Source: Escherichia coli
GTDB taxonomy: Bacteria > Pseudomonadota > Gammaproteobacteria > Enterobacterales > Enterobacteriaceae
DNA: 64,000 bases
Reading direction: 5' to 3' (one strand)
Assembly: GCF_013122565.1 (NCBI RefSeq)
Contig: NZ_CP053258.1
Translations under genes and position numbers: made by a program
Notes under the pieces: model-generated
What the model saw: the letters and a program-made list of their open reading frames with translations, nothing else
Database searches by the model: none
Told to the model about the DNA's origin: nothing
Shown: positions 2,641-55,444 of the stretch, piece by piece
Position numbering within the stretch: the first letter of the stretch is position 1
Layout: every line of letters begins with the position of its first letter

Positions 2641-2652
2641 AAATAGCACATA

Positions 2653-2682
2653 AACGGTCCCCATCTGTCTTGAGGGACCGTT
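2653..2682 (+). terminator. Stem-loop downstream of ABC ATPase (aacggtccc / gggaccgtt), no clear U-tract
   Basis: 9-bp perfect inverted repeat with 12-nt loop immediately after stop codon. Confidence 0.3.
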
Positions 2683-2722
2683 CACCTGGTTAGGCTTCGG
2701 ACAACAATTATTCTCCAGTGTT

Positions 2723-2775
2723 ATATACTATAGGGGGGTATGCATTGACATATAGCATACCCCCCTATAGTATAT
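2723..2775 (+). promoter_or_regulatory. frmR promoter/operator: long inverted repeat with G6/C6 tracts flanked by TATAGTAT arms
   Basis: atactatagggggg ... cccccctatagtat inverted repeat directly upstream of frmR start; matches the known type of FrmR/RcnR-family operator (G/C tract flanked by AT-rich arms). Confidence 0.6.
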
Positions 2776-2799
2776 TGCATGCAGATGATGAGGTGCGAA

Positions 2800-3075
2800 A
2801 TGCCCAGTACTCCGGAAGAGAAGAAAAAGGTCCTTACTCGAGTTCGTCGTATTCGAGGGCAGATTGATGCTCTGGAACGGTCGCTGGAGAGTGATGCCGA
2901 ATGCCGTGCCATACTCCAACAGATCGCTGCCGTTCGGGGCGCGGCTAATGGGCTGATGGCAGAAGTGCTTGAAAGCCATATCCGGGAAACGTTTGACCGA
3001 AATGACTGCTACAGCCGCGAAGTCAGCCAATCCGTTGACGACACTATTGAACTGGTTCGTGCCTATCTTAAATAG
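2800..3075 (+). CDS. frmR: Formaldehyde-responsive transcriptional repressor FrmR (RcnR/CsoR family)
   Basis: 91-aa product starting [21 protein letters not shown]; GAGG SD upstream; track ORF begins 21 nt earlier at an in-frame ATG. Confidence 0.9.
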
Positions 3076-3079
3076 CTGA

Positions 3080-4219
<1,140 letters not shown>

Positions 4220-4311
4220 TTTCCCGCTGGTTTACCCCGTCCACTTCAGACGGGGTTCTTAATACTCTCCCCGGGCAGCCGTCCGGGGGATTAACCGTGA
4301 GATAATGACTG

Positions 4312-5145
4312 ATGGAACTCATTGAAAAACATGCCAGCTTTGGCGGCTGGCAAAATGTGTATCGGCATTATTCCGCATCACTGAAATGTGAAATGAATGT
4401 CGGCGTCTATCTCCCACCAAAAGCTGCAGGTGAAAAATTACCTGTGCTGTACTGGCTTTCGGGCCTGACCTGCAATGAGCAGAATTTCATTACTAAATCG
4501 GGGATGCAGCGTTACGCGGCTGAGCACAACATTATTATTGTTGCGCCGGACACCAGTCCGCGAGGCAGTCATGTCGCAGATGCCGACCGTTACGATCTCG
4601 GGCAAGGTGCCGGGTTTTACCTGAACGCGACGCAAGCGCCGTGGAATGAACATTACAAAATGTATGACTATATCCGCAACGAGCTGCCGGATTTAGTGAT
4701 GCAACATTTTCCGGCAACGGCCAAAAAGTCTATCTCTGGTCATTCTATGGGCGGGCTGGGCGCGCTGGTGCTGGCGTTACGTAACCCAGATGAATATGTC
4801 AGCGTCTCGGCGTTTTCGCCCATTGTCTCCCCATCGCAAGTGCCGTGGGGACAGCAAGCCTTTGCTGCATATCTTGGTGAAAATAAAGAGGCCTGGTTGG
4901 ATTACGACCCGGTGAGTCTTATTTCACAAGGTCAACGCGTTGCGGAAATCATGGTTGATCAGGGGTTGAGTGATGATTTTTACGCGGAACAGCTGCGGAC
5001 TCAAAATCTTGAAAAGATCTGCCAGGAGATGAATATCAAGACGTTAATCCGTTATCACGAGGGTTACGACCACAGCTATTATTTTGTCTCCAGTTTTATT
5101 GGCGAGCATATTGCCTACCACGCCAATAAACTGAATATGCGTTGA
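4312..5145 (+). CDS. frmB: S-formylglutathione hydrolase
   Basis: 277 aa esterase D family, GHSMGG nucleophile elbow; follows frmA. Confidence 0.92.
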   Translation: MELIEKHASFGGWQNVYRHYSASLKCEMNVGVYLPPKAAGEKLPVLYWLSGLTCNEQNFITKSGMQRYAAEHNIIIVAPDTSPRGSHVADADRYDLGQGAGFYLNATQAPWNEHYKMYDYIRNELPDLVMQHFPATAKKSISGHSMGGLGALVLALRNPDEYVSVSAFSPIVSPSQVPWGQQAFAAYLGENKEAWLDYDPVSLISQGQRVAEIMVDQGLSDDFYAEQLRTQNLEKICQEMNIKTLIRYHEGYDHSYYFVSSFIGEHIAYHANKLNMR

Positions 5146-5154
5146 TAATAGTGC

Positions 5155-5260
5155 ACGACTGCCGGATGCGGCGTGAACGCCTTATCCGCCTACATTTCGC
5201 CCGCAGGCCGTAGGCATGATAAGACGCGCATAGCGTCGCATCAGGCATCTGCGCACGACT
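5155..5260. repeat. REP/BIME cluster (two inverted REP units)
   Basis: gccggatgcggcgtgaacgccttatccgcctac and gcctgatgcgacgctatgcgcgtcttatcatgcctac-type palindromic units between convergent frmB and yaiL. Confidence 0.8.
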
Positions 5261-5269
5261 TATCTATGT

Positions 5270-5809
5270 TTACCACATCAAATCATCAGGCACTTTGAAG
5301 TCGGCATACGGATCGTCTTCATCCTGCTCTTCGGCACTGAGCGCGCTGTGCAACACAATACTGCTGGCATCACGCTGAGCAATTTTATCGGCAACGCTGG
5401 CGGGAATAATGGCGTATTCACCTTCGCTATTGTTATCGACCAACAAGCGGGCAATCGCCAGACGACCATTAATCAACTGCGCCTGTGTGAGCTTATCGAC
5501 AAAAATCTTCTTAATCAGATTGCCGTCAGTGAAGTTAAAACCAATATCGCCATTGGCAATGGTGATTCGGTTCATTTCAATGAGCTGCTTCACCTGGGCT
5601 TTATATTCTTTCGCCAACGCCGCTTGTTTTTGCTGTTCGCTAAGCTGTTTATCACGCTCAAGCTGTGCCTTTTTATTTTCTTCTACCGCCGCCCGAGCTT
5701 CACGCGCCTGAACGCGCGATTTTTTCGCCGTTCTCTCGACCTTCGCCGCTTTTTTGCTGGTGACTAATCCTGCTTTGAGCAACTGCTCTTGTAAGGTAAG
5801 TTTTGCCAT
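5270..5809 (-). CDS. yaiL: DUF2058 family protein YaiL
   Basis: 179-aa product from MAKLTLQEQLLKAGLV; highly charged K/E/A-rich middle region; track ORF extended upstream to 5926. Confidence 0.8.
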   Translation of the reverse strand: MAKLTLQEQLLKAGLVTSKKAAKVERTAKKSRVQAREARAAVEENKKAQLERDKQLSEQQKQAALAKEYKAQVKQLIEMNRITIANGDIGFNFTDGNLIKKIFVDKLTQAQLINGRLAIARLLVDNNSEGEYAIIPASVADKIAQRDASSIVLHSALSAEEQDEDDPYADFKVPDDLMW

Positions 5810-5910
5810 CTTTGTTTCCAAACCCGCTGAATAATTTTTAGCGAGTATACCTGTAAACGCCGTGGGTGTATTGGGGGCAAGTCCCTTTCGCCCCTGCTTA
5901 ATAAGGCGCG

Positions 5911-7122
5911 TCAGGCATCGGCACACGGCTGCATTCTTGATCTCCGACTCATCAAAATAAACACCGCCAACCCAGCAACAAGAATACCCGGTGCAGAAGC
6001 GGCCATTACGCCGACCGTGCCAGTGCCTAATGCCAGCATTTTCCCGGCCAGTAACGGACCGCTCATAGCCCCCAGACGCCCTACCGCCACGGCTGTTCCC
6101 ACACCTGTTGCGCGGATCTGCGAACTGTAAAACAACGGTGCCAGGGCATACAAAACGCTTTGCCCACCTGTCGCAAACAACCCCGCGACAAATCCCGCCA
6201 GCAACATACCGTTAAATGACGACACCGTTCCAAGCGCCAGCAGCGAAGCTAACATGCCGCTATAAATCAGTAGCGACATGGTTACTGGACGCAGCTTATC
6301 CATCAATGCGCCCAACATTAACGTCCCGCTCGCCGCACCCATTTGCAGTGCAAACATCACCCCTGCCGCCTGCGATGGCTGGAATCCTTGCTCCACCAAA
6401 AGCAGCGGTAGCCAGTTGATCAACATGTAAACCACCAGCAGAGTGAAGAAATAACACAGCCACAGCAGCAGCGTCGCGGTTGCCGTTTCTGGCGCAAATA
6501 ACGCACGCAGTGGTGGCGCAGCCTGTTTTTCGCCAGCGAAAACCGCCGACTCCGGCAGCCAGCGCATTAATAGCGGCACCAGAATCAACGGCACCACACC
6601 ACCTACCCAAAACACCGTTTGCCATGCTAAATTTGCCCCCGCGAAACCCAGTGTCGCCGCCAGCGCCGCGCCAATGGGAACACCGCAATACATCAGGCTC
6701 ACTGCCGTCCCACGAAAACGTGGACCCGCGGCTTCAGACGTCAGGGCGATAAGATTCGGCAACGCCGCCCCCAGCCCGACACCGGTCATCAGCCGCGCAA
6801 AGACCAGTGAGGGGAAATCCCAGGCAATCGCCGTTGCCAGTGAGAACAAACCAAACAGCGCAACTGAGCCAATCAAAATGCGCTTGCGACCATAACGGTC
6901 CGCCAGCATTCCACCAACCAACGCGCCGGGTAGCAAACCGAGTATTCCGGCGCTGAATATCCAACCCATTTGCATTTTATCGAGTGCGAAAGCCTGAGCG
7001 ATGCCACCCGCCGCAATGCCAGCCGCCTGAAGATCCAGCCCTTCCATCAGAGCGACCAAAAAACAAAGCCCGATGGTCAGCATCAGGCGGGTTGAAGATG
7101 ATGAAGGGGTACGAGTCGACAT
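5911..7122 (-). CDS. mhpT: 3-(3-hydroxyphenyl)propionate MFS transporter
   Basis: 403 aa from MSTRTPSSSSTRLMLTIG; 12-TM MFS; downstream of mhp operon. Confidence 0.88.
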   Translation of the reverse strand: MSTRTPSSSSTRLMLTIGLCFLVALMEGLDLQAAGIAAGGIAQAFALDKMQMGWIFSAGILGLLPGALVGGMLADRYGRKRILIGSVALFGLFSLATAIAWDFPSLVFARLMTGVGLGAALPNLIALTSEAAGPRFRGTAVSLMYCGVPIGAALAATLGFAGANLAWQTVFWVGGVVPLILVPLLMRWLPESAVFAGEKQAAPPLRALFAPETATATLLLWLCYFFTLLVVYMLINWLPLLLVEQGFQPSQAAGVMFALQMGAASGTLMLGALMDKLRPVTMSLLIYSGMLASLLALGTVSSFNGMLLAGFVAGLFATGGQSVLYALAPLFYSSQIRATGVGTAVAVGRLGAMSGPLLAGKMLALGTGTVGVMAASAPGILVAGLAVFILMSRRSRMQPCADA

Positions 7123-7200
7123 AAGATGAACCTCGTTGCGAGTACAGGTGAATCGCGGCTGATACATTGTCAGCCGCGTAATCAGAACCATTTAATGACT

Positions 7201-7257
<57 letters not shown>

Positions 7258-7297
7258 TGGGATGGGCATACAAAATGCACGTTCTCGGCAGTCATCA

Positions 7298-8307
7298 TTA
7301 TTTGTTGTTGCGCAGATCCAGCGCCACGTCGACGATCATATCCTCCTGGCCGCCAACCATCCGGCGTTTGCCCAGCTCAACGAGAATATCCACCGCGCTT
7401 AAGCCATAACGCGCCGCCGCCGTTTCACAGTGACGCAGGAAGCTCGAGTAAACACCAGCGTATCCCAGCGCCAGCGTTTCGCGATCGACTCGTACCGGTC
7501 GATCCTGCAACGGACGCACCAGGTCGTCAGCGGCATCCATTAACGCATAGAGATCGGCCCCATGCTGCCAACCCAGTTTATCCGCGGCGGCAATAAATAC
7601 TTCCAGCGGCGCGTTACCTGCGCCCGCTCCCATTCCCGCGAGGCTGGCGTCGATTCGGTCGCAGCCCTCTTCCACCGCCGCGATAGAGTTCGCCACGCCA
7701 AGACTCAGGTTATGGTGAGCGTGCATGCCGGTTTGCGTTTCTGGTTTCAGCACTGCTTTCAGGGCGCGGAAACGGTCACGGATATCGCTCATGTTCATCG
7801 CACCGCCAGAATCCACCACATAAATGCAGGTCGCACCGTAGCCTTCCATCAGCTTTGCCTGCTTTGCGAGATTCTCTGGCGTGGTCATATGACTCATCAT
7901 CAGAAAACCAACGGTGTCCATTCCGAGCTCGCGGGCATACTGAATATGCTGGGCGGAAACATCAGCTTCGGTACAGTGCGTTGCCACACGAACCACCCGC
8001 GCGCCAGCCTGCCAGGCATTTTTCAGATCGTGAATAGTGCCGATTCCTGGCAGCAACAACGTCGCGATTTTGGCGTGCTTCACCACATCCGCCGCCGCTT
8101 CAATCCATTCAAGGTCGCTATGTGCGCCGAAACCATAGTTAAAGCTGGAACCCTGCAAACCGTCGCCATGGGCCACTTCAATCGAATCCACGCGGGCATC
8201 GTCCAGTGCTTTGGCAATCTGGCGAACGTTTTCCAGCGAATACTGATGACGAATGGCGTGCATACCGTCACGCAACGTGACGTCCGAGATATAAAGTTTT
8301 TTACCGT

Positions 8308-8311
<4 letters not shown>
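7298..8311 (-). CDS. mhpE: 4-hydroxy-2-oxovalerate aldolase
   Basis: 337 aa, [20 protein letters not shown]-terminus (HMGL-like aldolase). Confidence 0.93.
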
Positions 8312-10073
<1,762 letters not shown>

Positions 10074-30399: not shown

Positions 30400-31683
30400 T
30401 TACCGTTTGTAATCGATGGCTTCTGGCTGCTCCAGATATACGGTGGTTTGTGCCGGTTGTGTACTGGCAATCACCTTGCCGCCCCGTACCGAATAACGTA
30501 CCGGAACCTGACGGCGCAGCGCATCAAATCCATTTTCAGCCGGCAGGATAATCAGGTTGGCGCTGTTTCCGGCGGCAATGCCGTAATCCTGCAAATTCAA
30601 CGTCCTGGCGCTGTGGTGGGTGATTAAATTCAGGCCATCGTTAATCTGCCCGTAGCCCATCAGCTGGCAAACATGCAGCCCCATATGGAGTACTTGCAGC
30701 ATATTCGCCGTTCCCAGCGGATACCACGGATCGAAGACATCATCGTGACCAAAGCAGACGTTAATGCCGGACTCCAGCATCTCTTTAACGCGCGTGATGC
30801 CGCGACGTTTTGGATAGGTATCGAAACGTCCTTGCAGATGGATATTGACCAGCGGGTTGGCGACAAAGTTAATACCGGACATTTTCAGCAAGCGGAACAG
30901 GCGTGAGGTATACGCCCCGTTATAGGAGTGCATTGCCGTGGTGTGGCTGGCGGTAACTCGCGCGCCCATGCCTTCACGGTGCGCCAGGGCAGCAACGGTT
31001 TCGACAAAGCGCGACTGTTCGTCATCGATCTCATCACAGTGAACGTCGATGAGACGGTCGTATTTTTGCGCCAGGGCGAAGGTTTTATGCAGCGACTCCA
31101 CGCCGTATTCGCGGGTAAATTCAAAATGCGGAATCGCCCCCACTACATCTGCCCCTAAGCGTAGCGCCTCTTCCAGCAACGCTTCACCGTTGGGATACGA
31201 CAAAATCCCTTCCTGCGGGAAGGCAACGATTTGCAGATCAATCCACGGCGCGACTTCCTGCTTCACTTCCAGCATTGCTTTTAGCGCAGTCAGCGTTGCA
31301 TCCGAAACATCGACATGGGTACGCACATGCTGAATACCGTTGGCAATCTGCCATTTCAGCGTTTGCCAGGCGCGTTGTTTCACATCGTCATGGGTTAATA
31401 ACGCTTTGCGCTCGGCCCAGCGTTCAATGCCTTCAAACAGCGTGCCGGACTGATTCCAGTTCGGTTGTCCGGCGGTTTGCGTGGTGTCCAGGTGAATATG
31501 TGGCTCCACAAACGGCGGTATAACTAAACCTTGTTCGGCATCCAGGCTGTTTTCAGTTATGGCCATCACGCCGGATTGCGCATCAATGGCGCTGATTTTT
31601 CCGTCGTGAAGATGAATCTGCCACAGCCCCTCTTTGCCAGGTAAACGGGCGTTACTAATTGTTTGTAAAGCGTTATTCGACAC
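30400..31683 (-). CDS. codA: Cytosine deaminase
   Basis: 427 aa beginning at GTG (VSNNALQTI...); amidohydrolase metal ligands HIHLD; overlaps codB stop. Confidence 0.9.
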
Positions 31684-44869: not shown

Positions 44870-45517
44870 TTACCCCGCAAAAGAAACACGCAATAACTTT
44901 AACTGCCCGTTAATAATGCCAAATTCCAGTATAGTTGTGCCATCACAAACAGCCGGTGGAATTTGTTCATTAGCCTGCGAGCCAATATTCAGCGTAATGC
45001 CATCGTCAGAAATATTCCCCGACATCGCCAGTTCACATATTCCCGTGACGTAGTGGCGCTCCCCTTTCTCTTCGTAATAGAAACGTCCATCATTGAGGGG
45101 ATAATATTTTCTTTTTTGCTCCGCTGGCGTCAGCGAATGACTGAGATAATCATCAATCCATTGGGTACCCGGATGTATCGTGAATTTTGTGACATTATGC
45201 AGACGCCGCATAATGGTTTCTGAATGGCGATCAAATAGTGCTTCTGTGAAGGGTTCAGATTCAGGAAACTCAATCTCAGCGAGAAAGCCGAAATAGGTAT
45301 CGTAGGGGAATTTTAAGAAGGTTTTTAGTTTCGTGGCATTCTTTGCACTCAGCGCTTGCTGAAACTTTTGCAATTGCGTTAAGGCATCTTTTTTCTGCTC
45401 TGGCGTGACCAGGGGCTGTATGCGCACCGCCTCGCATTCGTGTTGTGAATTTCCAGCAGGGCAAGTTGCCAGGACGGCCTGACTCAGAAACAACAGCGAT
45501 AACCAAAGAAATCTCAC
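44870..45517 (-). CDS. Hypothetical secreted protein (signal peptide, four Cys), no recognisable domain
   Basis: 215-aa ORF starting MRFLWLSLLFLSQAVLATCPAG (signal-peptide-like); AT-rich codon usage distinct from flanking yahK and yahJ. Confidence 0.55.
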   Translation of the reverse strand: MRFLWLSLLFLSQAVLATCPAGNSQHECEAVRIQPLVTPEQKKDALTQLQKFQQALSAKNATKLKTFLKFPYDTYFGFLAEIEFPESEPFTEALFDRHSETIMRRLHNVTKFTIHPGTQWIDDYLSHSLTPAEQKRKYYPLNDGRFYYEEKGERHYVTGICELAMSGNISDDGITLNIGSQANEQIPPAVCDGTTILEFGIINGQLKLLRVSFAG

Positions 45518-45636
45518 GGAGTCTATCCATCCCTGGATAAAAAAGATAATCCGCAGTGTACGTCATGGGCAAAACGCAGAGGATATCGGGTTTTAAAATC
45601 GGAATAGTGCCTGCCCGGATATCCTCGCTGATAACG

Positions 45637-47016
45637 TTACACCACACTCCCCCACACCAGTTGTCCTTTATGGAACGTTGCCGTTCTCGGCGAGATACGC
45701 GCCACCGCCTCGGCGGAACAGGAGGCGTCCACCAGCACAAAGCTGGCGTCATCCTGTGCTTTCGGCCAGACGCGCTCGCCTTTTTCATTCAGCGGCAATA
45801 CATCACCAGTGGCTAAAAACAGCGAGCGGGAGAGGTTCTGTTCGTTAGGACGAATATAGAGCTGCGCGTAGAGATTGGCTTTTTCCAGCATGTCGCCCAG
45901 GCCGTAAGGCGACCAGTGGTCAATAACGCTGTCAGTTCCGGTCATGACTTTTACGCCTTTGTCGTGCAACTGTTTGAGCGGCATATGCAGCGTGCCAATC
46001 GGCACCGTCGAGGCGATAGAAATTTGCTGCGCCGCCATCCGGTGCGCCAGCGCATCGACCTGTTGTTCGTTGAGCGTTGCCAGCGCAAAGGCGTGGCTGA
46101 TGGTCAGCTTACCTTTCAGTTGCGGCGTTTTCTCTACCGTTTCAACCATATAATTGATGGCTGCCACGCCTGCCGGAGTGGTTTCGTGCATGTGAATATC
46201 GACGCCTTTGTCATAGTCAAGGGCAATCTGGAACATGGTGTCGAGGGATTTTTCCATCGCGCCATCGACATTGGTCGGGTCCAGCCCGCCGACGTAATGC
46301 GCGCCCGCCTGCATTGCTTCACGCATTAAGGGTTCCGATTTCGACAGCAGCAAACCGTGCTGCGGGAAGGCGACAATTTCACACTCGAAGCCCGCCTGAC
46401 GTCGCGCCAGCACCGCCTGCAAATTTTGCAGATTTTTCAGGCCGGAAACCGGTTCGATATTGCAGTGGCTGCGGGCAATGGTGGTGCCTTTCGACTGCAA
46501 TAAATCGATCAGTTTTTCCGCCCGTTCCTGCGTGTACGGTTGCAGCTCCGGCAGCATTTTCTGCTCGAGCTTAATCATGTCCTGGATGGTGGTGCCTGCC
46601 GGACGATTGAGCGAGCGCCACGGCCCGCCGTAAAAGGTTTTGTCGAGATGAATATGCATGTCGCGGGTGGTGGGCAGCATCAGCTTACCGCCAGCGTCAT
46701 AGTGCGGCAGCGTGGCGTCCGGATGCTGATTGTTCTCGCGCAGTGCAACAATTTTGCCGTTCTGAATCTCCACGGTCTGGCGCGCCGTGCGGGTCTGCAC
46801 CGCCACGCCATTTTCGTAGTCAAATCCAGTTTCCAGCAGCACGTTGTCGAGATAGTAATGCGGGTCAGTGATTTTCATGGTGTTGTTCGCTTCGCAGTTT
46901 GTGGTGCCAGCTACCGCCGCATGGGCGAGCGGCACAGAGGTACCAAACAGCGCGGCGGCGGTGACCATCTTACCGCTCTGGCTCAGAAATTCACGGCGGC
47001 TATTGTTTTCTTTCAT
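45637..47016 (-). CDS. yahJ: Amidohydrolase-family deaminase with Tat signal
   Basis: 459 aa; twin-arginine motif SRREFL near N-terminus; metal-dependent hydrolase HxH motif. Confidence 0.88.
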   Translation of the reverse strand: MKENNSRREFLSQSGKMVTAAALFGTSVPLAHAAVAGTTNCEANNTMKITDPHYYLDNVLLETGFDYENGVAVQTRTARQTVEIQNGKIVALRENNQHPDATLPHYDAGGKLMLPTTRDMHIHLDKTFYGGPWRSLNRPAGTTIQDMIKLEQKMLPELQPYTQERAEKLIDLLQSKGTTIARSHCNIEPVSGLKNLQNLQAVLARRQAGFECEIVAFPQHGLLLSKSEPLMREAMQAGAHYVGGLDPTNVDGAMEKSLDTMFQIALDYDKGVDIHMHETTPAGVAAINYMVETVEKTPQLKGKLTISHAFALATLNEQQVDALAHRMAAQQISIASTVPIGTLHMPLKQLHDKGVKVMTGTDSVIDHWSPYGLGDMLEKANLYAQLYIRPNEQNLSRSLFLATGDVLPLNEKGERVWPKAQDDASFVLVDASCSAEAVARISPRTATFHKGQLVWGSVV

Positions 47017-47025
47017 CTTACGTCC

Positions 47026-47976
47026 TTACGTTTTAATAATATGGGTGCCCGTTTCACCGCGCAGCGCCGCAGGCAGGCATTCCGGCGTGGTGATAATCAC
47101 TTCTTTGCCGCCCTGTTCCAGGAACGTCAGGCTGGCGATGATTTTTGGCAACATGCTGCCAGGCGGAAAATGCCCTTCCTGCATATAGCGGGTCATGGTG
47201 GCAATATCCACCCGATCGAGCGCCTGCTGCTGCGGTTTACCAAAATGAATACACACTTTTTCCACGCCAGTGGTGATCACCAGAATGTCGGCGTGAATTT
47301 CACGGGCCAGCAGCGCGGTAGAGAGATCTTTGTCGATAACCGCGTCCACGCTTTGGTAATCCCCCGCTTCAGTACGCACTACCGGAATTCCACCGCCGCC
47401 CGCGCCAATTACGACAAAACCTTGTTGGATCAGCGCTTTAATGGCAGGTGCTTCGACAATACGTTTCGGTTCCGGCGAGGCGACCACGCGGCGATAGCCC
47501 CGCCCGGCATCTTCAACAAAACACCAGTCAGGGTTTGCCTTTTGTAATTCGTCACGCTGGCTGTCACTAAAGAATGCGCCGATGGGCTTGGTGGGATGGG
47601 CAAATCCCGGATCGTTTTTATCCACTTCCACCTGAGTCACCACGGTGACGGCTTTTTTCTCGCCGTGGCGCGCCAGCCGGTTGTTCAGCGCCTGCTGGAT
47701 CAGATAGCCAATGCCACCTTGCGTATCCGCCACACAGTTTGCCAGCGGCGTTAAGGGCAGCCCTTCGCGCTCGTGGGCAATCTCCGCACGGCGTAAATCC
47801 AGCCCGACCTGCGGCCCGTTGCCGTGGGTCAGCACAATGTCGTAATCGGAAGCCAGCATTTCCAGCACCGTATCGGCCACGGCTTTCACCGCCTCCGCCT
47901 GATGCTCAATCGACTGGCTGGCGTTATCTTTGATAATGCTGTTGCCACCAATGGCAACGACCACAAGCTCTTTCAT
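47026..47976 (-). CDS. yahI: Carbamate kinase-like protein
   Basis: 316 aa from MKELVVVAIGGNSI (amino-acid kinase family); track ORF extends 39 codons upstream. Confidence 0.88.
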   Translation of the reverse strand: MKELVVVAIGGNSIIKDNASQSIEHQAEAVKAVADTVLEMLASDYDIVLTHGNGPQVGLDLRRAEIAHEREGLPLTPLANCVADTQGGIGYLIQQALNNRLARHGEKKAVTVVTQVEVDKNDPGFAHPTKPIGAFFSDSQRDELQKANPDWCFVEDAGRGYRRVVASPEPKRIVEAPAIKALIQQGFVVIGAGGGGIPVVRTEAGDYQSVDAVIDKDLSTALLAREIHADILVITTGVEKVCIHFGKPQQQALDRVDIATMTRYMQEGHFPPGSMLPKIIASLTFLEQGGKEVIITTPECLPAALRGETGTHIIKT

Positions 47977-48071
47977 AATTTTATGTCCGCTACAGAGGGT
48001 GATGAGGTTATGAGAGTGAGGTTGCCCCTCTCCCCAGAAGGAAGAAGGGATCGTAAGGTGCAGTTGGAGGG

Positions 48072-49490
48072 TCAGACGCCGTAACGTTCGCACCAGCCAA
48101 GAATGGCTTTCTCGAAGCAGGCGAATGGCGGATGCACAATGCCCGCGCCAATCATGCCGACGCCCGCATCTTTATGGGCGATGGCGGTGTTGATCACCGG
48201 CAGAATGCCGCTGCTACCCACGCGGGTGATGTCGATTGCCGACGGCACGCCCATAAAACCGAGCAGCGGAATGGTGACGTTGGGGTTTTCACCGAGGGTG
48301 ATTTCGCGCATCTGACGGGAGAAATCGATAGCCTCTTCCACCGTACCGCCCACCAGCGCGACGATAGCGGGCGCGGTCGCCATAGCAAATCCGCCAATAC
48401 CGTAGGTTTCGGTGATGGCGCTATCGCCGATATCCAGCCCCGAATCTTCCGGCTTATAACCGGCAAACATCGGCCCGATCACCTGCTGCGCCGGGCCGGT
48501 AAACCATTGCCCCGGCAGGCCGCTGACTCGCAGGCCAAACTCGACGCCGTTACGTGCCATCGTGGTCACCACGGTGCTGTATTCGATGCCGTGCGCCGCA
48601 TCCATCGCCGCTTTACACATCGCCATCCACGTCGGGCCGGAGAAGTAGTCGCTGCTGGCGACAAACTCAAATACTTCGCGCTGTTGCTCCACGGAATAAC
48701 CTGCCTGAATAATCCCCGGCGTCAGCGCCTGAATCAGCAGCGTCGTCCCGGCGTTATTGCGGTTATGGCATTCATCGCCCATATGCAGCGCCTGCGCCAG
48801 CATTAAGCGCAGATCGATCTCGCCGATAATTTTCATCGCGTCGCGCAGCATTGGTCCCTGCACATCGCGCATCCAGTTCAGGCGGTCAATCACGCTCTGG
48901 TCGTTAGCGCCCATACGCAAAATCTTCGCCATCTGCTCGCTCATATTGGTATAAGCGATGTTGCCGTAGGTTTTGTTTTTCACGATGTGCATAAACATCG
49001 AGGCCGAGGTAACGCCCGCCATCGATCCCACGCAGTCGTGTTCGTGGCACGGCGAGAAGGTGATCTCCCCGGAGGCCGCCAGTTCAGCCGCCTCGTCGAG
49101 ATCTTTCGCCAGCCCTTCGAACACCAGCGCCCCGGTGACCGCGCCTTTCATCGCGCCGCACATTTTTTCCCAGGTAACCGGCGGCCCGGCGTGAAGAATG
49201 GTTTTCGGCGTCATGCCCGGCACCACGTTAATCGCCTGATCAAAACCAATCAGCACCGGATGCGACTGGATAATGCGCTCCAGCGCCTGCTGGTTAGCGG
49301 CGGCGATTTTGTCTGCCAGCGGCGAATCGGTAATGTTATCCAGCGCCTGCACCACCTGCATATTGCCCTGCCCCGGCGGCGTCCAGTCGAGTTGGGTCAC
49401 TTCTACGTGCTGCTTTTTCAGGTCATCGCTAAACATGGCGATGCCGACGTTAATAACGTTCAACGGTTGGCTAAACAGTGACTGGCTCAT
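48072..49490 (-). CDS. yahG: DUF1116-family protein (YlbE-like)
   Basis: 472 aa; length and synteny match K-12 yahG. Confidence 0.85.
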   Translation of the reverse strand: MSQSLFSQPLNVINVGIAMFSDDLKKQHVEVTQLDWTPPGQGNMQVVQALDNITDSPLADKIAAANQQALERIIQSHPVLIGFDQAINVVPGMTPKTILHAGPPVTWEKMCGAMKGAVTGALVFEGLAKDLDEAAELAASGEITFSPCHEHDCVGSMAGVTSASMFMHIVKNKTYGNIAYTNMSEQMAKILRMGANDQSVIDRLNWMRDVQGPMLRDAMKIIGEIDLRLMLAQALHMGDECHNRNNAGTTLLIQALTPGIIQAGYSVEQQREVFEFVASSDYFSGPTWMAMCKAAMDAAHGIEYSTVVTTMARNGVEFGLRVSGLPGQWFTGPAQQVIGPMFAGYKPEDSGLDIGDSAITETYGIGGFAMATAPAIVALVGGTVEEAIDFSRQMREITLGENPNVTIPLLGFMGVPSAIDITRVGSSGILPVINTAIAHKDAGVGMIGAGIVHPPFACFEKAILGWCERYGV

Positions 49491-51037
49491 CAGGCTTCCT
49501 CCCCTTTGCAGATAAATTCACGCGCCAGCAATCCGGTATTGGTGCTGCTGCTCGCCAGAATCACTCCGGCATCAAGCAGCATCTGGCTTTGTTGTTCTAA
49601 CGATGGCGTATCAAGATCGGTACCCAGCACATAGGCGAGAATGATCAACTCGCGTCCTTCGGCAGCGGCGATCGCTTTCGCTTCTTTGATCGCCTCGATG
49701 GTGGAGCCGACCGGATCTTCATGCGATCCAAATCCGAGCACAAAATCCATCACGATCACCGCCACTTCTGGATCGCGCGCCTCTTCGATCAAGCGACTGA
49801 TGCGGTTGGTGGGGTCAATCATTGGATGCGGCTTGCTGTTGGTGAAGTCGTCATCGCCAAAGTCGAGGAAGGTGTGTTTGATGCTGCGGTTGATATCTTT
49901 CAGGCGGAATTCCGGATCGGGCTGGATATTGCTGTAGACATCGCCATGTTTTTCCATCACCGCGAACATGATTTCGTCACACAGCGTGCCGCCGCAGAAC
50001 AGGCCACGAATGTATTTCTGCTGCGGTTGCAGACGCGCACGCACATCCGCAATCAACGGCTGGTTAAGCGTATGCAGGTCGAGATGTTCTTGTTTCACGC
50101 CGGAGAGCATCACCGCTTTTAGCGCCGCTTCTTTGCTGCCACGAGCAAACTGTAGACCCTGCTCATCCACCGGCGTTTCACCGCGACCGAGGAAACAGAC
50201 CACCACCGGCTTGCGGCAGGCACGTGCGCGTTCCAGCACTTTGCGGGCCACCGCAGGCGCGGGAGGTTTTGAAATCAGCGCGATAATTTCAGTTTGCGGA
50301 TCGTTTTCCAGCATCCCGATGGCGTCAAGCATCATCAGGCCGCCGATTTTCTCGCTCAGGTCGCGCCCGCCGGTGCCAATCAGTTGTGAAACGCCGCCAC
50401 CAAATTCATGAATGCGGACGCTCAGCTCCTGGCTGCCGGTGCCGGATGCGCCAACAATACCGATGTTGCCGCGACGCACGGCGTTACCAAAACAGAGCGC
50501 CGCGCCGTTGATAATCGCCGTGCCACAGTCTGGCCCCATCATCAGCAGCCCTTTTTCGTGGGCCAGTTGCTTGAGCGCCAGTTCATCTTCAACTGAGACG
50601 TTATCGGAAAACAGCATCACGTTGAGATCGTTTTGCAGCGCCTGACGCGCTTCGCGAGCAGCAAACAGACCGTTGACCGAAATCACCGCCAGGTTACTTT
50701 CCGGGATATGCTTTTTGGCGCTGGCAATAGTGGCGTAACGCGCCTCGTGCGAGCCGCTTTGCGCTTTGGTGTTGAACAGTTCTTCAATCTCCACCAGCAA
50801 CTGCTCGTTGTCCGCACCCGATTTACCATTGATGACAATCATCAGGTCGCCGTTTTTCGCCTGTTCCAGCTCCGGCGTCAGCAGCCCTAAATTCTTCAGC
50901 ACGCCTTTGTTCATTTCGGTCGCCATCGCCACAAATGCCTGCTCGACGCCGTCGAGTTTATTTGCACGCGTGGAGATAGACATCAGCGAGACAGAATCAA
51001 AATAGGTATTCGGTTTAATGACTATTTTAACTGACAT
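49490..51037 (-). CDS. yahF: FdrA-like protein (succinyl-CoA synthetase alpha-like CoA-binding fold)
   Basis: 515 aa; overlaps yahG start and yahE end, indicating an operon. Confidence 0.85.
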   Translation of the reverse strand: MSVKIVIKPNTYFDSVSLMSISTRANKLDGVEQAFVAMATEMNKGVLKNLGLLTPELEQAKNGDLMIVINGKSGADNEQLLVEIEELFNTKAQSGSHEARYATIASAKKHIPESNLAVISVNGLFAAREARQALQNDLNVMLFSDNVSVEDELALKQLAHEKGLLMMGPDCGTAIINGAALCFGNAVRRGNIGIVGASGTGSQELSVRIHEFGGGVSQLIGTGGRDLSEKIGGLMMLDAIGMLENDPQTEIIALISKPPAPAVARKVLERARACRKPVVVCFLGRGETPVDEQGLQFARGSKEAALKAVMLSGVKQEHLDLHTLNQPLIADVRARLQPQQKYIRGLFCGGTLCDEIMFAVMEKHGDVYSNIQPDPEFRLKDINRSIKHTFLDFGDDDFTNSKPHPMIDPTNRISRLIEEARDPEVAVIVMDFVLGFGSHEDPVGSTIEAIKEAKAIAAAEGRELIILAYVLGTDLDTPSLEQQSQMLLDAGVILASSSTNTGLLAREFICKGEEA

Positions 51038-51890
51038 AATTCCCTCCGTAGGTTTGGCTCAGCGCACAACCATCGGCCATGCCATACAGCATGTCGCAGC
51101 CGGAACTGGAGCCAATATGTTTAATTTTTTCTATTGCCTGAGTTGCGTTCCCAGGAATGTCATAAATAATGTTGTGAATAAAACGATGAATATTTTCCCG
51201 GCAGCGTTGTTGTAATGCGGCTTCGAGCGTTATGGCACTTAATAATGTGGTATTATTTCTGCCGCGTTGCAGACCGAGATAAAATTCCTCTTTGTATTTT
51301 TCCGCCGGATGTCCGGAAATAAATAAAATAAGTACCAGTCCGGTCAGATAATCATCGGCTGATGGCGTAAGCCCAATCCCTAATCCCATCATATTAGCTA
51401 CCGCTGAGGCGATATTTTGTTTTTCGTTTACGGCCTGAATAACTGCTTGTCGTTTAATATGTAATTCTTTATTTAACGCCTGATAAAACGGATTATCGCC
51501 GCGATAATTAAACAGGGTTTCATTTTCCCCCAGGTGCTGATGAATAATGTCGTGCCACTGTTGCCAGGCGATAAGGTGAAAATTCACAGCGGTCATTTGC
51601 AAGGTTGGGGACAGCCAACGCTGGCAATGACTCATCTCTATATGAAGATGTTGACCAACCGTAATGCCTTGATCGTCAAACTGAACCTTATCACCATGCC
51701 GGAACAGACCATCAAAGTGAGTGAGTGCCAACCGACAACTGTTTGGCGCATTGTCGTACTCTTCACAAAGCAGCGTTAGCAACTGCTGGCGAGCCGGGAG
51801 TGCGATATTTACCGCTCTGGCAAAGACCTGTTCAACCTGTCCTTGCCCCCGCTGCGCCAGAAAATCAGCATCCGCAGTTAGCGCCCACAC
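51027..51890 (-). CDS. yahE: Uncharacterized protein YahE (DUF2877-like)
   Basis: 287 aa; synteny. Confidence 0.8.
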   Translation of the reverse strand: MWALTADADFLAQRGQGQVEQVFARAVNIALPARQQLLTLLCEEYDNAPNSCRLALTHFDGLFRHGDKVQFDDQGITVGQHLHIEMSHCQRWLSPTLQMTAVNFHLIAWQQWHDIIHQHLGENETLFNYRGDNPFYQALNKELHIKRQAVIQAVNEKQNIASAVANMMGLGIGLTPSADDYLTGLVLILFISGHPAEKYKEEFYLGLQRGRNNTTLLSAITLEAALQQRCRENIHRFIHNIIYDIPGNATQAIEKIKHIGSSSGCDMLYGMADGCALSQTYGGNYVS

Positions 51891-51929
51891 ACACCGTCTT
51901 TCTGGTGTGTTGATAGCAAGCCTCCCGGT

Positions 51930-52535
51930 TTATGCGCCTGCGGCAATCAGTAACTGCGCAATCTCTTCAAAGCCCCGTTCTCGCGCCAGTTCCAGCGGTG
52001 TTTTGCCATATTTATCGGTCAGATGCGGGCTGGCACCGTGTTCCAGCAATAACTGGACAATCGCCTGCTGTTTAATCCCGCCATCATTAAGCACAATCGC
52101 TTCCAGTAGCGGCGTCCAGCCAACATGGTTGGTCTGGTTAACGTTAATATCGGTGTGCGCCAAAAGCTCTTTTACAATACTTAAATGGCCTTTTTCACAG
52201 GCAGGCGTCAGGCCGACACCGCCAAAACGGGTTACGCAATTAAGATCGGGTTTAGCCGGTAAAATAATTCGTAGTAGCGTTAAATCATCGTACAGACAGC
52301 TAATTAAAAAAGGATTTAAACAGGTATGATCTTGTTTATTAATATCCGCTCCGGCATCAATTAATGCCTGAACGCAAGCATATTGCTGATATAAACTTGC
52401 CAGCGTAATTGCCGTTTTCCCGTGGCGATCGCAGGTATTAATATCGACACCCAGCGCAAGGCAGGTTTTTACTTTATCGATATCACCCTGTTGCGCAGCC
52501 AATAAATAGTCGGCAGGTAGATTTTTTATAGTCAT
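51930..52535 (-). CDS. yahD: Ankyrin-repeat protein
   Basis: 201 aa with tandem ankyrin repeats (GKTAITLA, GWTPLLEA, GKTPLELA). Confidence 0.85.
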   Translation of the reverse strand: MTIKNLPADYLLAAQQGDIDKVKTCLALGVDINTCDRHGKTAITLASLYQQYACVQALIDAGADINKQDHTCLNPFLISCLYDDLTLLRIILPAKPDLNCVTRFGGVGLTPACEKGHLSIVKELLAHTDINVNQTNHVGWTPLLEAIVLNDGGIKQQAIVQLLLEHGASPHLTDKYGKTPLELARERGFEEIAQLLIAAGA

Positions 52536-52792
52536 TCACATTCCCCTGGTTTTTGTGGCTGTTTTCGATGAATTGAGAATAGCAACGATAATCTGATAAA
52601 AGAACCCGCTTAAATTTAATTCGCCGTATTTCGCCTTTTTGTTGAATGATGTTCAACAATCTTTTCGCAGTGTGCGGTAGTGCAATATTTGTTTCTTTGA
52701 CCCGATACCCTTTCACTCAATCAGGTTTTATTTCTCTATAGTCTGCACATGTAAGAGTAGCTTTCGTCCATGTCTAACCAGAGGGGAACAAG

Positions 52793-53290
52793 ATGAACGG
52801 ACTCACGGCAACGGGTGTCACCGTCGGTATTTGTGCAGGGCTTTGGCAGTTAGTGTCTTCACATGTCGGGCTCTCTCAGGGATGGGAATTATTAGGAACC
52901 ATTGGCTTCGTCGCCTTTTGCAGTTTTTATGCCGCAGGCGGCGGTAAATCGGGGTTTATCAGAAGTCTGGCGGTTAATTATTCCGGGATGGTGTGGGCAT
53001 TTTTCGCCGCGCTGGCTGCCGGTTGGCTGGCCTCGGTGAGTGGGATTTCTGGGTTCTGGGCCAGCGTGATGACTACCGTGCCTTTCTCAGCGGTAGTGGT
53101 CTGGCAAGGGCGTTTCTGGTTACTGTCTTTTATTCCCGGAGGCTTTCTCGGCATGACGCTATTTTTTGCCAGCGGGATGAACTGGACGGTGACATTACTG
53201 GGTTTTCTGGCGGGTAACTGCGTGGGGATAATTTCAGAATATGGTGGGCAAAAATTAAGCGAAGCGACGACTAAACGCGACGGGTATTAA
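52793..53290 (+). CDS. yahC: Small inner-membrane protein
   Basis: 165 aa, 4-5 hydrophobic segments. Confidence 0.8.
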   Translation: MNGLTATGVTVGICAGLWQLVSSHVGLSQGWELLGTIGFVAFCSFYAAGGGKSGFIRSLAVNYSGMVWAFFAALAAGWLASVSGISGFWASVMTTVPFSAVVVWQGRFWLLSFIPGGFLGMTLFFASGMNWTVTLLGFLAGNCVGIISEYGGQKLSEATTKRDGY

Positions 53291-53381
53291 AAGTTATTCA
53301 AAAATGATTACCCATCTTTAATTGATACCTCTACAGTTATGCCTGGAGAAAATTAAAGTAGAAAATGGCGGGAATGGTTTA

Positions 53382-54314
53382 ATGAACTCAATTTTTACCG
53401 AAGAGAATCTGTTGGCATTTACTACCGCTGCGCGTTTTGGCAGCTTCAGTAAAGCCGCAGAAGAGTTGGGTTTAACCACTTCCGCCATTAGCTACACCAT
53501 TAAGCGTATGGAGACGGGGCTGGATGTGGTGCTGTTCACTCGCAGTACCCGCAGCATTGAGTTAACGGAGTCCGGGCGTTATTTTTTCCGCAAAGCTACC
53601 GACCTGCTGAATGATTTTTATGCCATCAAACGTAGCATAGATACTATTTCGCAGGGCATAGAAGCGCGTGTGCGCATTTGTATTAATCAGCTGCTTTATA
53701 CGCCCAAACACACCGCACGCTTATTGCAGGTACTGAAAAAGCAGTTTCCTACCTGCCAGATTACCGTCACCACCGAAGTGTATAATGGCGTCTGGGATGC
53801 GATTATTAATAATCAGGCGAATATCGCTATCGGCGCACCCGACACGCTGCTGGACGGTGGCGGTATTGATTACACTGAAATTGGCGCGATTCGCTGGGCT
53901 TTTGCTATCGCCCCGGATCACCCGTTAGCCTTTGTGCCGGAACCCATCGCCGAAAGCCAACTGCGTCTCTATCCTAATATCATGGTGGAGGACACCGCGC
54001 ATACGATTAATAAAAAAGTGGGCTGGTTGCTGCATGGGCAGGAGTCAATTCTGGTGCCAGATTTCAACACCAAATGTCAGTGCCAGATTTTAGGTGAAGG
54101 AATTGGTTTTTTGCCGGATTACATGGTCCGTGAGGCGATGGCGCAATCCCTGCTGGTTACCCGACAAATCCATAATCCACGCCAGGATTCACGCATGTTG
54201 CTGGCGACCCAGCATTCAGCAACGGGTCAGGTGACGCAGTGGATTAAAAAACAATTTGCGCCAAATGGCATATTAACGGGGATCTATCAGGATTTACTGC
54301 ATCGGGAGAATTAA
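53382..54314 (+). CDS. yahB: LysR-family transcriptional regulator
   Basis: 310 aa from MNSIFTEENLLAFTTAARFGSFSKAAEELGLTTSAISYTIKRME (LysR HTH). Confidence 0.85.
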   Translation: MNSIFTEENLLAFTTAARFGSFSKAAEELGLTTSAISYTIKRMETGLDVVLFTRSTRSIELTESGRYFFRKATDLLNDFYAIKRSIDTISQGIEARVRICINQLLYTPKHTARLLQVLKKQFPTCQITVTTEVYNGVWDAIINNQANIAIGAPDTLLDGGGIDYTEIGAIRWAFAIAPDHPLAFVPEPIAESQLRLYPNIMVEDTAHTINKKVGWLLHGQESILVPDFNTKCQCQILGEGIGFLPDYMVREAMAQSLLVTRQIHNPRQDSRMLLATQHSATGQVTQWIKKQFAPNGILTGIYQDLLHREN

Positions 54315-54355
54315 TCGCTGCCAACCTCCCGATGCGCTGTGAATAGCGGTTTACA

Positions 54356-55444
54356 TCAACCACCTGCTTTCATTACCCATTCAGAGATAAATTTATTACC
54401 CGGAACTGGCGGGGAGTACAAATAGCCCTGCAAAAAGTGAACGCCTTTACCGATCATTAAATCCGCCTGCTCCTGGGTTTCTACCCCTTCCGCTACGATA
54501 CTCAGACCAGGCTTACGCGCCAGTTCGACAATATTGTCCACAATATGACCGGATATTTCGTCGACACTCGCCATTTGCACAAATGACTTATCGATCTTAA
54601 TAAAATCGACCGGAAACGCCTGCAGATAACGATAGGTCGCATAACCCGTACCAAAGTCATCCAGCGCAAAGGTAATGTTGTGCTGATGAAGGCTGTCAAA
54701 TATCGCTCTGGCTTCTGGCGTTACCGGAATAGGGTTACGTTCCGTTAGCTCGAGAACCAGTTTGATCTTATCGTTTCCTAATTTCTTGACCAGGTTCAGG
54801 CATTCTTTTTCAAATCCCGCGGCCAAAAAACAACCCGCCGAGACGTTGATACCAATATGGAAATTATCCGGCAGCAAATGTTTTACCGGCATCAGAATAT
54901 CCGCAGTCTGTTTCATCAGTTGGCGGGTCATTATGACAATAAGACCGGATGACTCCGCCAGAGGAATAAACTGATCCGGCGGGATGATTCCCGTTTGTGG
55001 ATGTTCCCAGCGGACAAGCACCTCACAGCCCGTCAGTACCCCAGTCTGCGCGCAGAAAACCGGTTGGATCCACGGTTTGAATTCATGGTTTTCCAACGCC
55101 AGACTGATGGCTTCAGGCGTGACGATATGGTGATAGTGATTATCATTAATATATCTGTGACTATTACTACCCGTGGCGGATATGATCTCCGGATTGTACT
55201 GAAAGAAAATATCGCGCCAGAAAGTAATATCGCTCTGAATCCCCAGTTTCTCAAAGAGCTGTTTCTTTTGATGTGAAATGGTCTTTGCACTGCGATTTCT
55301 GTACTGTGATATTTCTGTTACAGACATTCCCTGCATCAGCAGCTTGAGTAGCAGTCGTTCTTTCTCGGATACGCTACCAGGCAATGACAAATGAACCGTT
55401 GTACCGAACTCTTGCAGAAAAACACGAAAATCACATGAATTCAT
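54356..55444 (-). CDS. pdeL: c-di-GMP phosphodiesterase / transcriptional regulator (LuxR HTH + EAL)
   Basis: 362 aa from MNSCDFRVFLQEFG; N-terminal LuxR-type HTH, C-terminal EAL domain (ELTE, DDFGTGY). Confidence 0.9.
   Translation of the reverse strand: MNSCDFRVFLQEFGTTVHLSLPGSVSEKERLLLKLLMQGMSVTEISQYRNRSAKTISHQKKQLFEKLGIQSDITFWRDIFFQYNPEIISATGSNSHRYINDNHYHHIVTPEAISLALENHEFKPWIQPVFCAQTGVLTGCEVLVRWEHPQTGIIPPDQFIPLAESSGLIVIMTRQLMKQTADILMPVKHLLPDNFHIGINVSAGCFLAAGFEKECLNLVKKLGNDKIKLVLELTERNPIPVTPEARAIFDSLHQHNITFALDDFGTGYATYRYLQAFPVDFIKIDKSFVQMASVDEISGHIVDNIVELARKPGLSIVAEGVETQEQADLMIGKGVHFLQGYLYSPPVPGNKFISEWVMKAGG

Follow-up and report, generated by a model that had tools for sequence, protein, structure and literature searches.

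A 64,000-nt window of contig NZ_CP053258.1 (assembly GCF_013122565.1) from Escherichia coli was analysed around the yahD-E-F-G-I-J operon, which a first-pass annotation made from the letters alone had described as a cryptic, carbamate-kinase-linked catabolic module mirroring the fdrA-ylbE-ylbF-carbamate kinase set of the allantoin region. All six of the claimed open reading frames (ORFs) are indeed present, on the minus strand and within positions 45637–52535:

51930–52535, minus strand: yahD, a 201-aa ankyrin-repeat protein
51027–51890, minus strand: yahE, 287 aa with a GTG start, an AllH/DUF2877 subunit
49490–51037, minus strand: yahF, a 515-aa AllF/FdrA-like subunit (HMA_AllF_N + CoA_binding + Ligase_CoA)
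48072–49490, minus strand: yahG, a 472-aa AllG/DUF1116 subunit
47026–47976, minus strand: yahI, a 316-aa carbamate kinase family protein
45637–47016, minus strand: yahJ, a 459-aa CodA/AtzC-type mononuclear metal amidohydrolase (aminohydrolase)

The yahE/yahF and yahF/yahG genes overlap by 11 nt and 1 nt, respectively, and the remaining junctions are gaps of 39 nt (yahD-yahE), 95 nt (yahG-yahI) and 9 nt (yahI-yahJ). The start of yahI is the ATG at 47976 in RefSeq and in K-12, the mechanically called ORF being longer and reaching a GTG at 48093. The NCBIfam and Pfam models agree with the domain calls made earlier (ankyrin, FdrA family, carbamate kinase subfamily and amidohydrolase), and the RefSeq annotations of SCU-105 and K-12 contain an identical gene set. 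By BLASTP, the Yah proteins of the window are 96.5–99.4% identical to those of K-12, and at least 80% of the 9.5-kb region is held by 4976 of 5426 complete E. coli genomes (~92%). The six genes are all intact and under purifying selection, since their codon differences from K-12 are mostly synonymous (synonymous/non-synonymous: yahF 37/7, yahG 34/4, yahI 25/2, yahJ 45/13, yahD 13/4 and yahE 15/10).

Homology with the allantoin-region set, on which the first-pass annotation had let its proposal stand or fall, was found on alignment for all four of the shared enzymes. In BLASTP comparisons with the K-12 allantoin region, YahF is 38.6% identical to FdrA/AllF (E 7e-101), YahG 45.3% to YlbE/AllG (E 2e-118), YahE 24.9% to YlbF/AllH (E 8e-10) and YahI 38.3% to YbcF/AllK (E 4e-56), while the regulator YahB is 38.5% identical to AllS (E 1e-71). 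The correct pairing of the subunits is thus YahE with YlbF and YahG with YlbE. The AllF-, AllG- (PF06545) and AllH-type (PF11392) subunits are encoded together in yah, with the carbamate kinase gene yahI 95 bp downstream of yahG, and the Pfam families AllG, AllH and HMA_AllF_N/CoA_binding/Ligase_CoA were matched on the Yah orthologues. The linkage between the G subunit and the kinase is retained in the Enterobacterales loci that reach past yahG, and also in Peribacillus, Paenibacillus and Psychrobacillus. Both BLASTP and a MAFFT alignment place YahG residues 12–53 against FdrA residues 513–554, so that a segment of about 45 residues closes FdrA at its C-terminal end and opens YahG at its N-terminal end. 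The boundary between the F and G genes thus falls after the segment in one cluster and before it in the other, which fits F and G subunits that are in physical contact.

The allantoin-region proteins have themselves been defined only recently. The carbamoyltransferase role proposed for FdrA-YlbE-YlbF has since been proven experimentally, AllFGH having been shown biochemically in 2024 to be the oxamic transcarbamylase (PMC11326118), and YbcF/AllK was identified in 2022 as a catabolic carbamate kinase (PMC9843812). The yah genes are mentioned in neither paper (PMC11326118, PMC9843812), and the 2024 y-ome survey lists them as an uncharacterised gene cluster. A literature search on yahB-yahJ returned nothing functional beyond a listing of twin-arginine translocation (Tat) substrates and a weak virulence phenotype; no paper assigning a yah substrate was found in it, and the description of the substrate as undefined therefore stands. 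Since the genes and their family assignments are already in databases, this is not the discovery of a new element; the operon encodes an uncharacterised, paralogous counterpart of an enzyme system that was itself defined only lately.

By its profile matches, YahF is a member of the FdrA family and a distant relative of the succinyl-CoA synthetase (SCS) alpha subunit. It scores 487.7 bits against the FdrA family model NF004760 (cutoff 433), and 280 bits against the FdrA structure 3dmy versus 65 bits against SCS-alpha, with the SCS models reaching 68.5 bits against a cutoff of 336. The SGT phosphate loop is kept, and no counterpart of the GHAGA phosphohistidine motif was seen in the MAFFT alignment, which is uncertain in that region. 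The combination of a GHAGA-bearing alpha subunit and a beta-type partner that marks a succinyl-CoA synthetase was not found in yah. By analogy, the phosphorolysis of oxalurate would resemble the first SCS half-reaction, with an acyl group moved from its leaving group onto phosphate. YahG is about 72% identical to 3clq, an Enterococcus faecalis V583 protein of unknown function. Its model shows no resemblance to other PDB entries, and a reading of YahG as an SCS-beta-like subunit was rejected for that reason. The YahE model is confident (predicted local distance difference test score, pLDDT, 95.4) and consists of a beta domain followed by a helical bundle; no similar solved structure was found for it, and the YahE family carries the invariant motifs GLGxGLTPSGDD and IGSxSG.

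YahI has the full-length amino-acid-kinase fold and retains the carbamate kinase motifs HGNGPQVG, GGGGIPV, VIDKD and GSMLPK. It scores 649.9 bits against the carbamate kinase subfamily model NF009007 (cutoff 266), and 281 and 249 bits against the carbamate kinases of Pyrococcus furiosus (1e19) and E. faecalis (1b7b). With the arcC equivalog model TIGR00746, however, its 346 bits fall slightly short of the cutoff of 358.25, and YahI is therefore taken as a member of the carbamate kinase family and not as a certified ArcC equivalent.

YahJ matches the unnamed amidohydrolase subfamily model NF005312 with 712.8 bits (cutoff 447), its closest solved relatives being AtzC (6nbo, 155 bits; 2qt3/4cqb, 105 bits) and, next, cytosine deaminase. 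The CodA residues H61, H63, Q156, H214, E217, H246 and D313 are all kept in YahJ and its gammaproteobacterial orthologues, from which the enzyme can be judged catalytically competent, whereas CodA D314 is replaced by Ser. The scores against the cytosine deaminase models stay below their cutoffs (NF005748, 102/438; NF006685, 83/483; NF005759, 70/403 bits). A genuine codA gene lies in the same window at about 30694–31617 on the minus strand; its product is 25% identical to YahJ and is the sole other detectable paralogue of any Yah protein within the window. The N-terminus of YahJ carries a predicted export signal:

46918–47016, minus strand: YahJ Tat signal peptide, MKENNSRREFLSQSGKMVTAAALFGTSVPLAHA, with the twin-arginine motif SRREFL...AHA

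The signal comprises an S/T-R-R-x-F-L motif, a hydrophobic stretch and an AxA site, and the earlier call of a Tat-exported amidohydrolase agrees with this as well as with the NF005312 match. The motif is visible in all gammaproteobacterial YahJ orthologues examined except two (L029 and L055), for which only an over-extended ORF N-terminus was scanned, and is absent from the YahJ homologues of Bacilli. YahJ is among the listed E. coli Tat substrates, and its deletion is mildly attenuating in a mouse competition assay (competitive index 0.70) (PMC7549933).

A scan of the genome collection with YahG found relatives in 475 species, and the locus counts given here are taken from the best 80 loci of that scan. 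Four further features of the window are needed for the comparison:

47977–48071, minus strand: yahG-yahI spacer, 95 bp, the slot of a ~515-aa permease gene in 55/71 related loci
52638–52660, no strand assigned: dyad ATTGTTGAA-N5-TTCAACAA(A/T) of the T-N11-A type, ~125 bp upstream of the yahD ATG
52793–53290, plus strand: yahC, a 165-aa DUF1097 inner-membrane protein
53382–54314, plus strand: yahB, a LysR-type regulator and AllS paralogue

The usual gammaproteobacterial order, found in Enterobacterales and Aeromonas, is yahB | yahD-(yahE)-yahF-yahG-[~515-aa membrane protein]-yahI-yahJ, and in the complete gammaproteobacterial loci examined yahJ always follows directly after yahI on the same strand. 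The 71 loci with B, D, G and I fall into two groups: 55 carry the membrane-protein gene in the G-I interval and lack yahC, and 16 carry yahC and lack the membrane-protein gene. No locus has both or neither. The yahC-type loci belong to Escherichia, Pseudocitrobacter, Kluyvera, Citrobacter amalonaticus, Klebsiella/Raoultella and one Enterobacter sp. This complementarity of yahC and the permease gene is suggestive only, as it may reflect a single evolutionary event. The spacer of K-12 is longer (421 bp, 339744–340164), contains repetitive extragenic palindromic (REP) elements and bears the annotation of a doubtful gene, yahH. The ~515-aa membrane protein, which is 50–55% identical between phyla, was matched by no Pfam, NCBIfam or PDB profile; the names xanthine permease and AGZA-family permease are those given by its sources, and PF00860 was found in one of its relatives. 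YahE is missing from 26 of 78 loci (L040–L067 and L082; Enterobacter, Leclercia, Lelliottia, Silvania, Huaxiibacter and Aeromonas), in which the gap between D and F is 55–110 bp (277 bp in Aeromonas). Reduced forms occur as well: in Pragia fontium the cluster consists of yahD, yahJ and a YahB-like regulator alone, again preceded by the dyad, and Shewanella has yahJ by itself. Neither the missing permease gene of Escherichia nor the occurrence of yahD-yahJ-yahB apart from yahEFGI had been noted in the first-pass annotation.

Two observations concern the mobility of these genes. About 70 large, mostly conjugative E. coli and Klebsiella plasmids match the operon at 80–90% identity; the one inspected, E. 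coli plasmid pHS13-1-IncF (NZ_CP026494.1, 89370–109053), carries a second yah-like cluster in the order LysR|Ank-DUF2877-FdrA-DUF1116-516-aa permease-carbamate kinase, with no yahJ and with IS100 and IS1 within a few kb on either side. In the mosaic loci of Pseudocitrobacter (L013 and L014), YahF, G, I and J are 96–99% identical to the window proteins, as compared with 72% for YahD, 55–58% for YahE and 71–73% for YahC, which points to a recent exchange of the yahF-J segment between genera.

YahB lies next to the cluster in all loci examined. Its top NCBIfam match is the AllS model NF007501 with 267 bits, under the cutoff of 372, and YahB is therefore an AllS paralogue and not AllS itself. It had been described as a divergent LysR regulator; the LysR type is right, but yahB is not directly divergent from yahD, since yahC sits between the two. 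A dyad of the form ATTGTTGAA-N5-TTCAACAAT (T-N11-A) is found 120–200 bp upstream of yahD in 80/80 loci. At least 14 of its 18 arm positions match in every one of these upstream regions, the five central bases being variable, and shuffled controls score 14 arm matches in just 8 of 1600 trials. From this conservation, the dyad is a probable YahB operator. No convincing common motif was found between it and the experimentally mapped AllS site upstream of allF (−203 to −144), the region being AT-rich, and in consensus scans of 44.6–53.5 kb, promoter and terminator sites were no more frequent than in shuffled sequence.

Ankyrin repeats in YahD were confirmed by models, and the protein has no signal peptide. 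Its orthologues (66–97% identical) occur in every gammaproteobacterial locus that reaches that position, and the clusters of Bacilli contain Ank-TPR homologues with 33–36% identity. YahC matches PF06496 (DUF1097) with an E value of 3e-26 and is a probable candidate to replace the missing permease in Escherichia, Klebsiella and Kluyvera. A DUF1097 protein (YcdZ-like) is also encoded directly upstream of the pyrimidine-catabolic preTA operon of Anaerostipes hadrus (PMC11036815), a second case of a DUF1097 membrane protein adjoining nucleobase catabolism genes.

The relatives in Bacilli belong to the same lineage as the window proteins (YahG 65–76%, YahF 53–64%, YahI 55–58% and YahE 24–32% identical), and all of their yah-type clusters are under PucR-type regulators, the type associated with purine catabolism. 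In Trichococcus, H, F, G and Ank-TPR are accompanied by two YahJ-like amidohydrolases that lack signal peptides, a membrane protein of 394 aa and a triple RidA fusion. Peribacillus has H, F, G, Ank-TPR and the carbamate kinase, with an AllC-like M20 amidase, a TRZ/ATZ-family hydrolase and two YahJ-like enzymes further downstream. To the same five genes Paenibacillus adds an NCS1 permease most similar to allantoin permease, together with a CDA-fold deaminase of 150 aa that has B. subtilis guanine deaminase as its best solved match, and Psychrobacillus adds a 513-aa permease (50% identical to the Aeromonas protein) and a GuaD-like deaminase as in Paenibacillus. Jeotgalibaca has the permease, Ank-TPR, F and G, and the E. 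faecalis type consists of H, F, G and a 393-aa membrane protein only. A deaminase of either fold is thus found beside F, G and the kinase in 4/6 of the Bacilli clusters examined, the slot being filled by two unrelated folds (YahJ-type and GuaD-like), both typical of amino-oxo nucleobases. As judged from these identities, the yah type forms a lineage of its own, which is conserved between Enterobacterales and Bacilli. Its recurrent core consists of F and G (with or without H), a carbamate kinase, a deaminase, a nucleobase-type permease and an ankyrin protein.

The best identity of the yah region (45000–54500) to any of the 5426 complete E. coli genomes is 96.4%, as compared with 99.0–99.1% for the mhp/frm region of the same window (2000–10000). 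This divergence extends across the whole prp-yah stretch, which is a locally divergent or recombinant segment. Between yahJ and yahK lies a 215-aa ORF (44870–45517, minus strand) with an N-terminal signal peptide, MRFLWLSLLFLSQAVLATC, possibly with a lipobox. It has no Pfam or NCBIfam match. SCU-105 and strain 042 both carry it under the label 'hypothetical protein', whereas K-12 lacks it, and it occurs in only 59/5426 complete E. coli genomes.

Taken together, we consider it somewhat better than an even bet that the operon is a catabolic, ATP-yielding route that follows the logic of the arginine and agmatine deiminase pathways with AllFGH-type parts, its putative substrate being an amino-substituted, nucleobase-like ureide. 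In such a route, YahB, as an AllS-like LysR activator, would bind the dyad upstream of yahD and turn the operon on. The folded, Tat-exported YahJ would then strip an exocyclic amino or alkylamino group from the presumed substrate in the periplasm, releasing ammonia and converting an acyl-guanidine-like unit into an acyl-urea. In most genera the product would be imported by the ~515-aa AzgA-like permease, and in Escherichia, Klebsiella and Kluyvera probably by YahC. Homology with AllH-AllF-AllG suggests that YahE-YahF-YahG would split this N-acyl-urea with phosphate into carbamoyl phosphate and a left-over amide, and YahI, with its strong carbamate kinase homology, would move the phosphate to ADP to give ATP, ammonia and CO2. 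YahD may serve as a protein-binding adaptor of the system.

Several lines of evidence argue for such a route. All four enzymes and the regulator are paralogous to the all cluster, in which AllFGH and AllK are biochemically defined; YahJ keeps the CodA residues and a Tat motif; and the same set of parts recurs across phyla. Two deaminase folds occupy one slot, next to a permease with a nucleobase-type name and under either AllS-paralogue or PucR regulators. The genes are under purifying selection and near-universal in E. coli, and the deletion of yahJ is mildly attenuating (PMC7549933). Other points weigh against it. No substrate, activity or expression condition has been reported for any Yah protein, and the steps have been put in order by analogy and not from a result. 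The label 'permease' for the membrane protein comes from the names that its sources use. The modules are also separable, as seen in Pragia (D-J-B), Shewanella (J), E. faecalis (H-F-G) and the IncF plasmids (without yahJ), and yahE is missing from about a third of the loci (26/78) although AllH is needed for full AllFGH activity (PMC11326118). YahD is cytoplasmic as judged from its sequence, whereas its recurrent neighbour YahJ is predicted to be exported. Finally, the operon contains no ring-opening hydrolase, and a heterocyclic substrate must therefore open spontaneously or via YahEFG, or else the substrate must be non-cyclic. The lack of such a hydrolase in the minimal clusters leaves room for a bolder variant, which we regard as a long shot: instead of acting on a linear ureide, YahEFG may itself open by phosphorolysis the acyl-urea bond of a nucleobase-type ring, such as a xanthine-, hydantoin- or triazine-dione-like product of the deaminase. 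YahI would then convert the carbamoyl-type phosphate so formed into ATP, and the ankyrin protein would be either a partner needed for assembly or one that accompanies YahJ through Tat as a 'hitch-hiker'. If true, this would be a previously undescribed energy-conserving cleavage of a nucleobase ring.

Other explanations have to be set against the deaminase-fed ureide route. YahEFG-YahI could duplicate the oxamate carbamoyltransferase and carbamate kinase in function, with oxalurate itself as the substrate; only the feeding route would then differ, with YahJ making oxalurate or a precursor (parabanate-like or oxalyl-guanidine) from oxidised purines. We think this unlikely, if by no means far-fetched. 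The E. faecalis cluster examined is of the yah type (G 70% identical to YahG vs 48% to YlbE; F 53% to YahF vs 38% to FdrA) and has no deaminase, as expected on direct uptake of oxalurate; Streptococcus faecalis is cited as a classical source of oxamic transcarbamylase activity, inducible by parabanic acid or oxalurate (PMC6022934, PMC11326118); and allFG or allGH alone restored 7–16% of the oxamate in the triple mutant (PMC11326118), which could reflect help from Yah subunits. However, the single deletion of allF, allG or allH in K-12 abolishes oxamate formation despite an intact yah operon (PMC11326118), and E. coli keeps both sets under separate regulators, which together argue for distinct roles. 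Oxalurate alone would also leave the recurrent deaminase, the nucleobase-type permease and the ankyrin partner unexplained. It is less probable still that the operon joins two independent neighbours, namely a periplasmic deaminase module for nitrogen scavenging (YahD-YahJ-YahB) and a YahEFG-YahI module for an unrelated cytoplasmic ureide. This reading is supported by Pragia fontium, which keeps only yahD, yahJ and the YahB-like regulator, dyad included, by the lone yahJ of Shewanella, by the IncF plasmid arrangement B-D-E-F-G-permease-I without yahJ and by the recombination break inside the Pseudocitrobacter cluster. It does not sit well with the invariable position of J directly after I, on one strand, in all complete gammaproteobacterial loci examined, with the deaminases that accompany F, G and the kinase in 4/6 Bacilli clusters, or with a single conserved putative operator and regulator ahead of the whole set.

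The first-pass annotation called the module 'cryptic', a label for which we found no support. In a reading of that kind, the Escherichia operon would be a decaying, disused remnant that has lost its permease. The G-I permease gene of 55/71 related loci is indeed absent, leaving only the 95-bp spacer that is REP-filled in K-12, and the literature searched gave no K-12 expression or phenotype. A remnant is nonetheless very improbable for an operon with six intact ORFs under purifying selection that is present in ~92% of complete E. coli genomes, has yahC exactly where the permease is absent, conserves its putative operator and shows a small in-vivo fitness cost upon yahJ deletion (PMC7549933). 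Most improbable of all, in our opinion, is that YahF is an acyl-CoA synthetase and that the cluster activates or cleaves a CoA thioester with no carbamoyl transfer. The RefSeq name 'acyl-CoA synthetase FdrA', the CoA_binding and Ligase_CoA domains and weak matches to SCS-alpha speak for this. Yet the AllFGH assay needs only oxamate, carbamoyl phosphate and Mg2+, and no CoA or ATP (PMC11326118), the SCS models score far under their cutoffs, the GHAGA motif is not conserved in the alignment, and the adjoining carbamate kinase is conserved across phyla.

The deaminase-fed ureide route, if true, would give gut and urinary-tract bacteria a new fermentative source of ATP and a new way of salvaging nitrogen, and would establish which substrates are used by a carbamoyltransferase family that has no relation to the classical ornithine/aspartate transcarbamylase (OTC/ATC) fold. 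The yah genes are one of the dense clusters of unknown function that remain in E. coli K-12 (PMC11551758), and are now directly testable, the sister enzyme AllFGH having been identified only in 2024. The yah type is moreover the version with the wide distribution, which extends from Enterobacterales to Bacilli and takes in conjugative IncF plasmids of pathogenic E. coli. With its accessory genes taken into account, the candidate substrate narrows to an amino-substituted, nucleobase-like ureide.

Among known systems, the closest is the AllFGH/AllK/AllS set of the allantoin region (b0504, b0518–b0521), which shares with yah the three enzyme subunit families, a carbamate kinase encoded next to them and a LysR activator paralogous to YahB (25–45% identity), and presumably also the chemistry in which an N-acyl-urea is phosphorolysed to carbamoyl phosphate and then yields ATP. 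The two sets differ in gene order, E(H)-F-G in yah and F-G-H in all, and the all operon lacks the ankyrin protein, the deaminase and the nucleobase-type permease that accompany yah (the permease in most taxa). The yah lineage is also separate, YahG being 65–76% identical to its Bacilli relatives but 45% to YlbE, and yah does not substitute for allFGH in K-12. YahJ has the same fold and subgroup as AtzC (N-isopropylammelide isopropylaminohydrolase) and CodA, which convert -N=C(NHR)-NH-CO- into a cyclic ureide, with the full set of metal ligands and catalytic residues; it differs in scoring under the cytosine deaminase cutoffs, in the Ser for Asp314 and in its Tat signal. The arginine and agmatine deiminase pathways resemble the proposed route in removing nitrogen to give a ureido compound, which is phosphorolysed to carbamoyl phosphate for substrate-level formation of ATP, but the kinase is the sole homologous enzyme. 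Unlike those pathways, yah has neither a transcarbamylase of the OTC/ATC fold nor a deiminase of the guanidino-modifying fold, and its first enzyme is predicted to be periplasmic in gammaproteobacteria. Since no OTC/ATC-fold transcarbamylase is encoded within 44.6–54.3 kb, the likeness to the deiminase pathways is one of logic only. The ygeW-ygeX-ygeY-hyuA-yqeA genes of anaerobic urate degradation are likewise a purine-linked E. coli cluster, with poorly defined substrates, whose last gene encodes a carbamate kinase paralogue and is the third gene of this type in E. coli (PMC12623156). That cluster differs in using the OTC-fold transcarbamylase YgeW and no AllFGH-type subunits, so that it has only the kinase family in common with yah.

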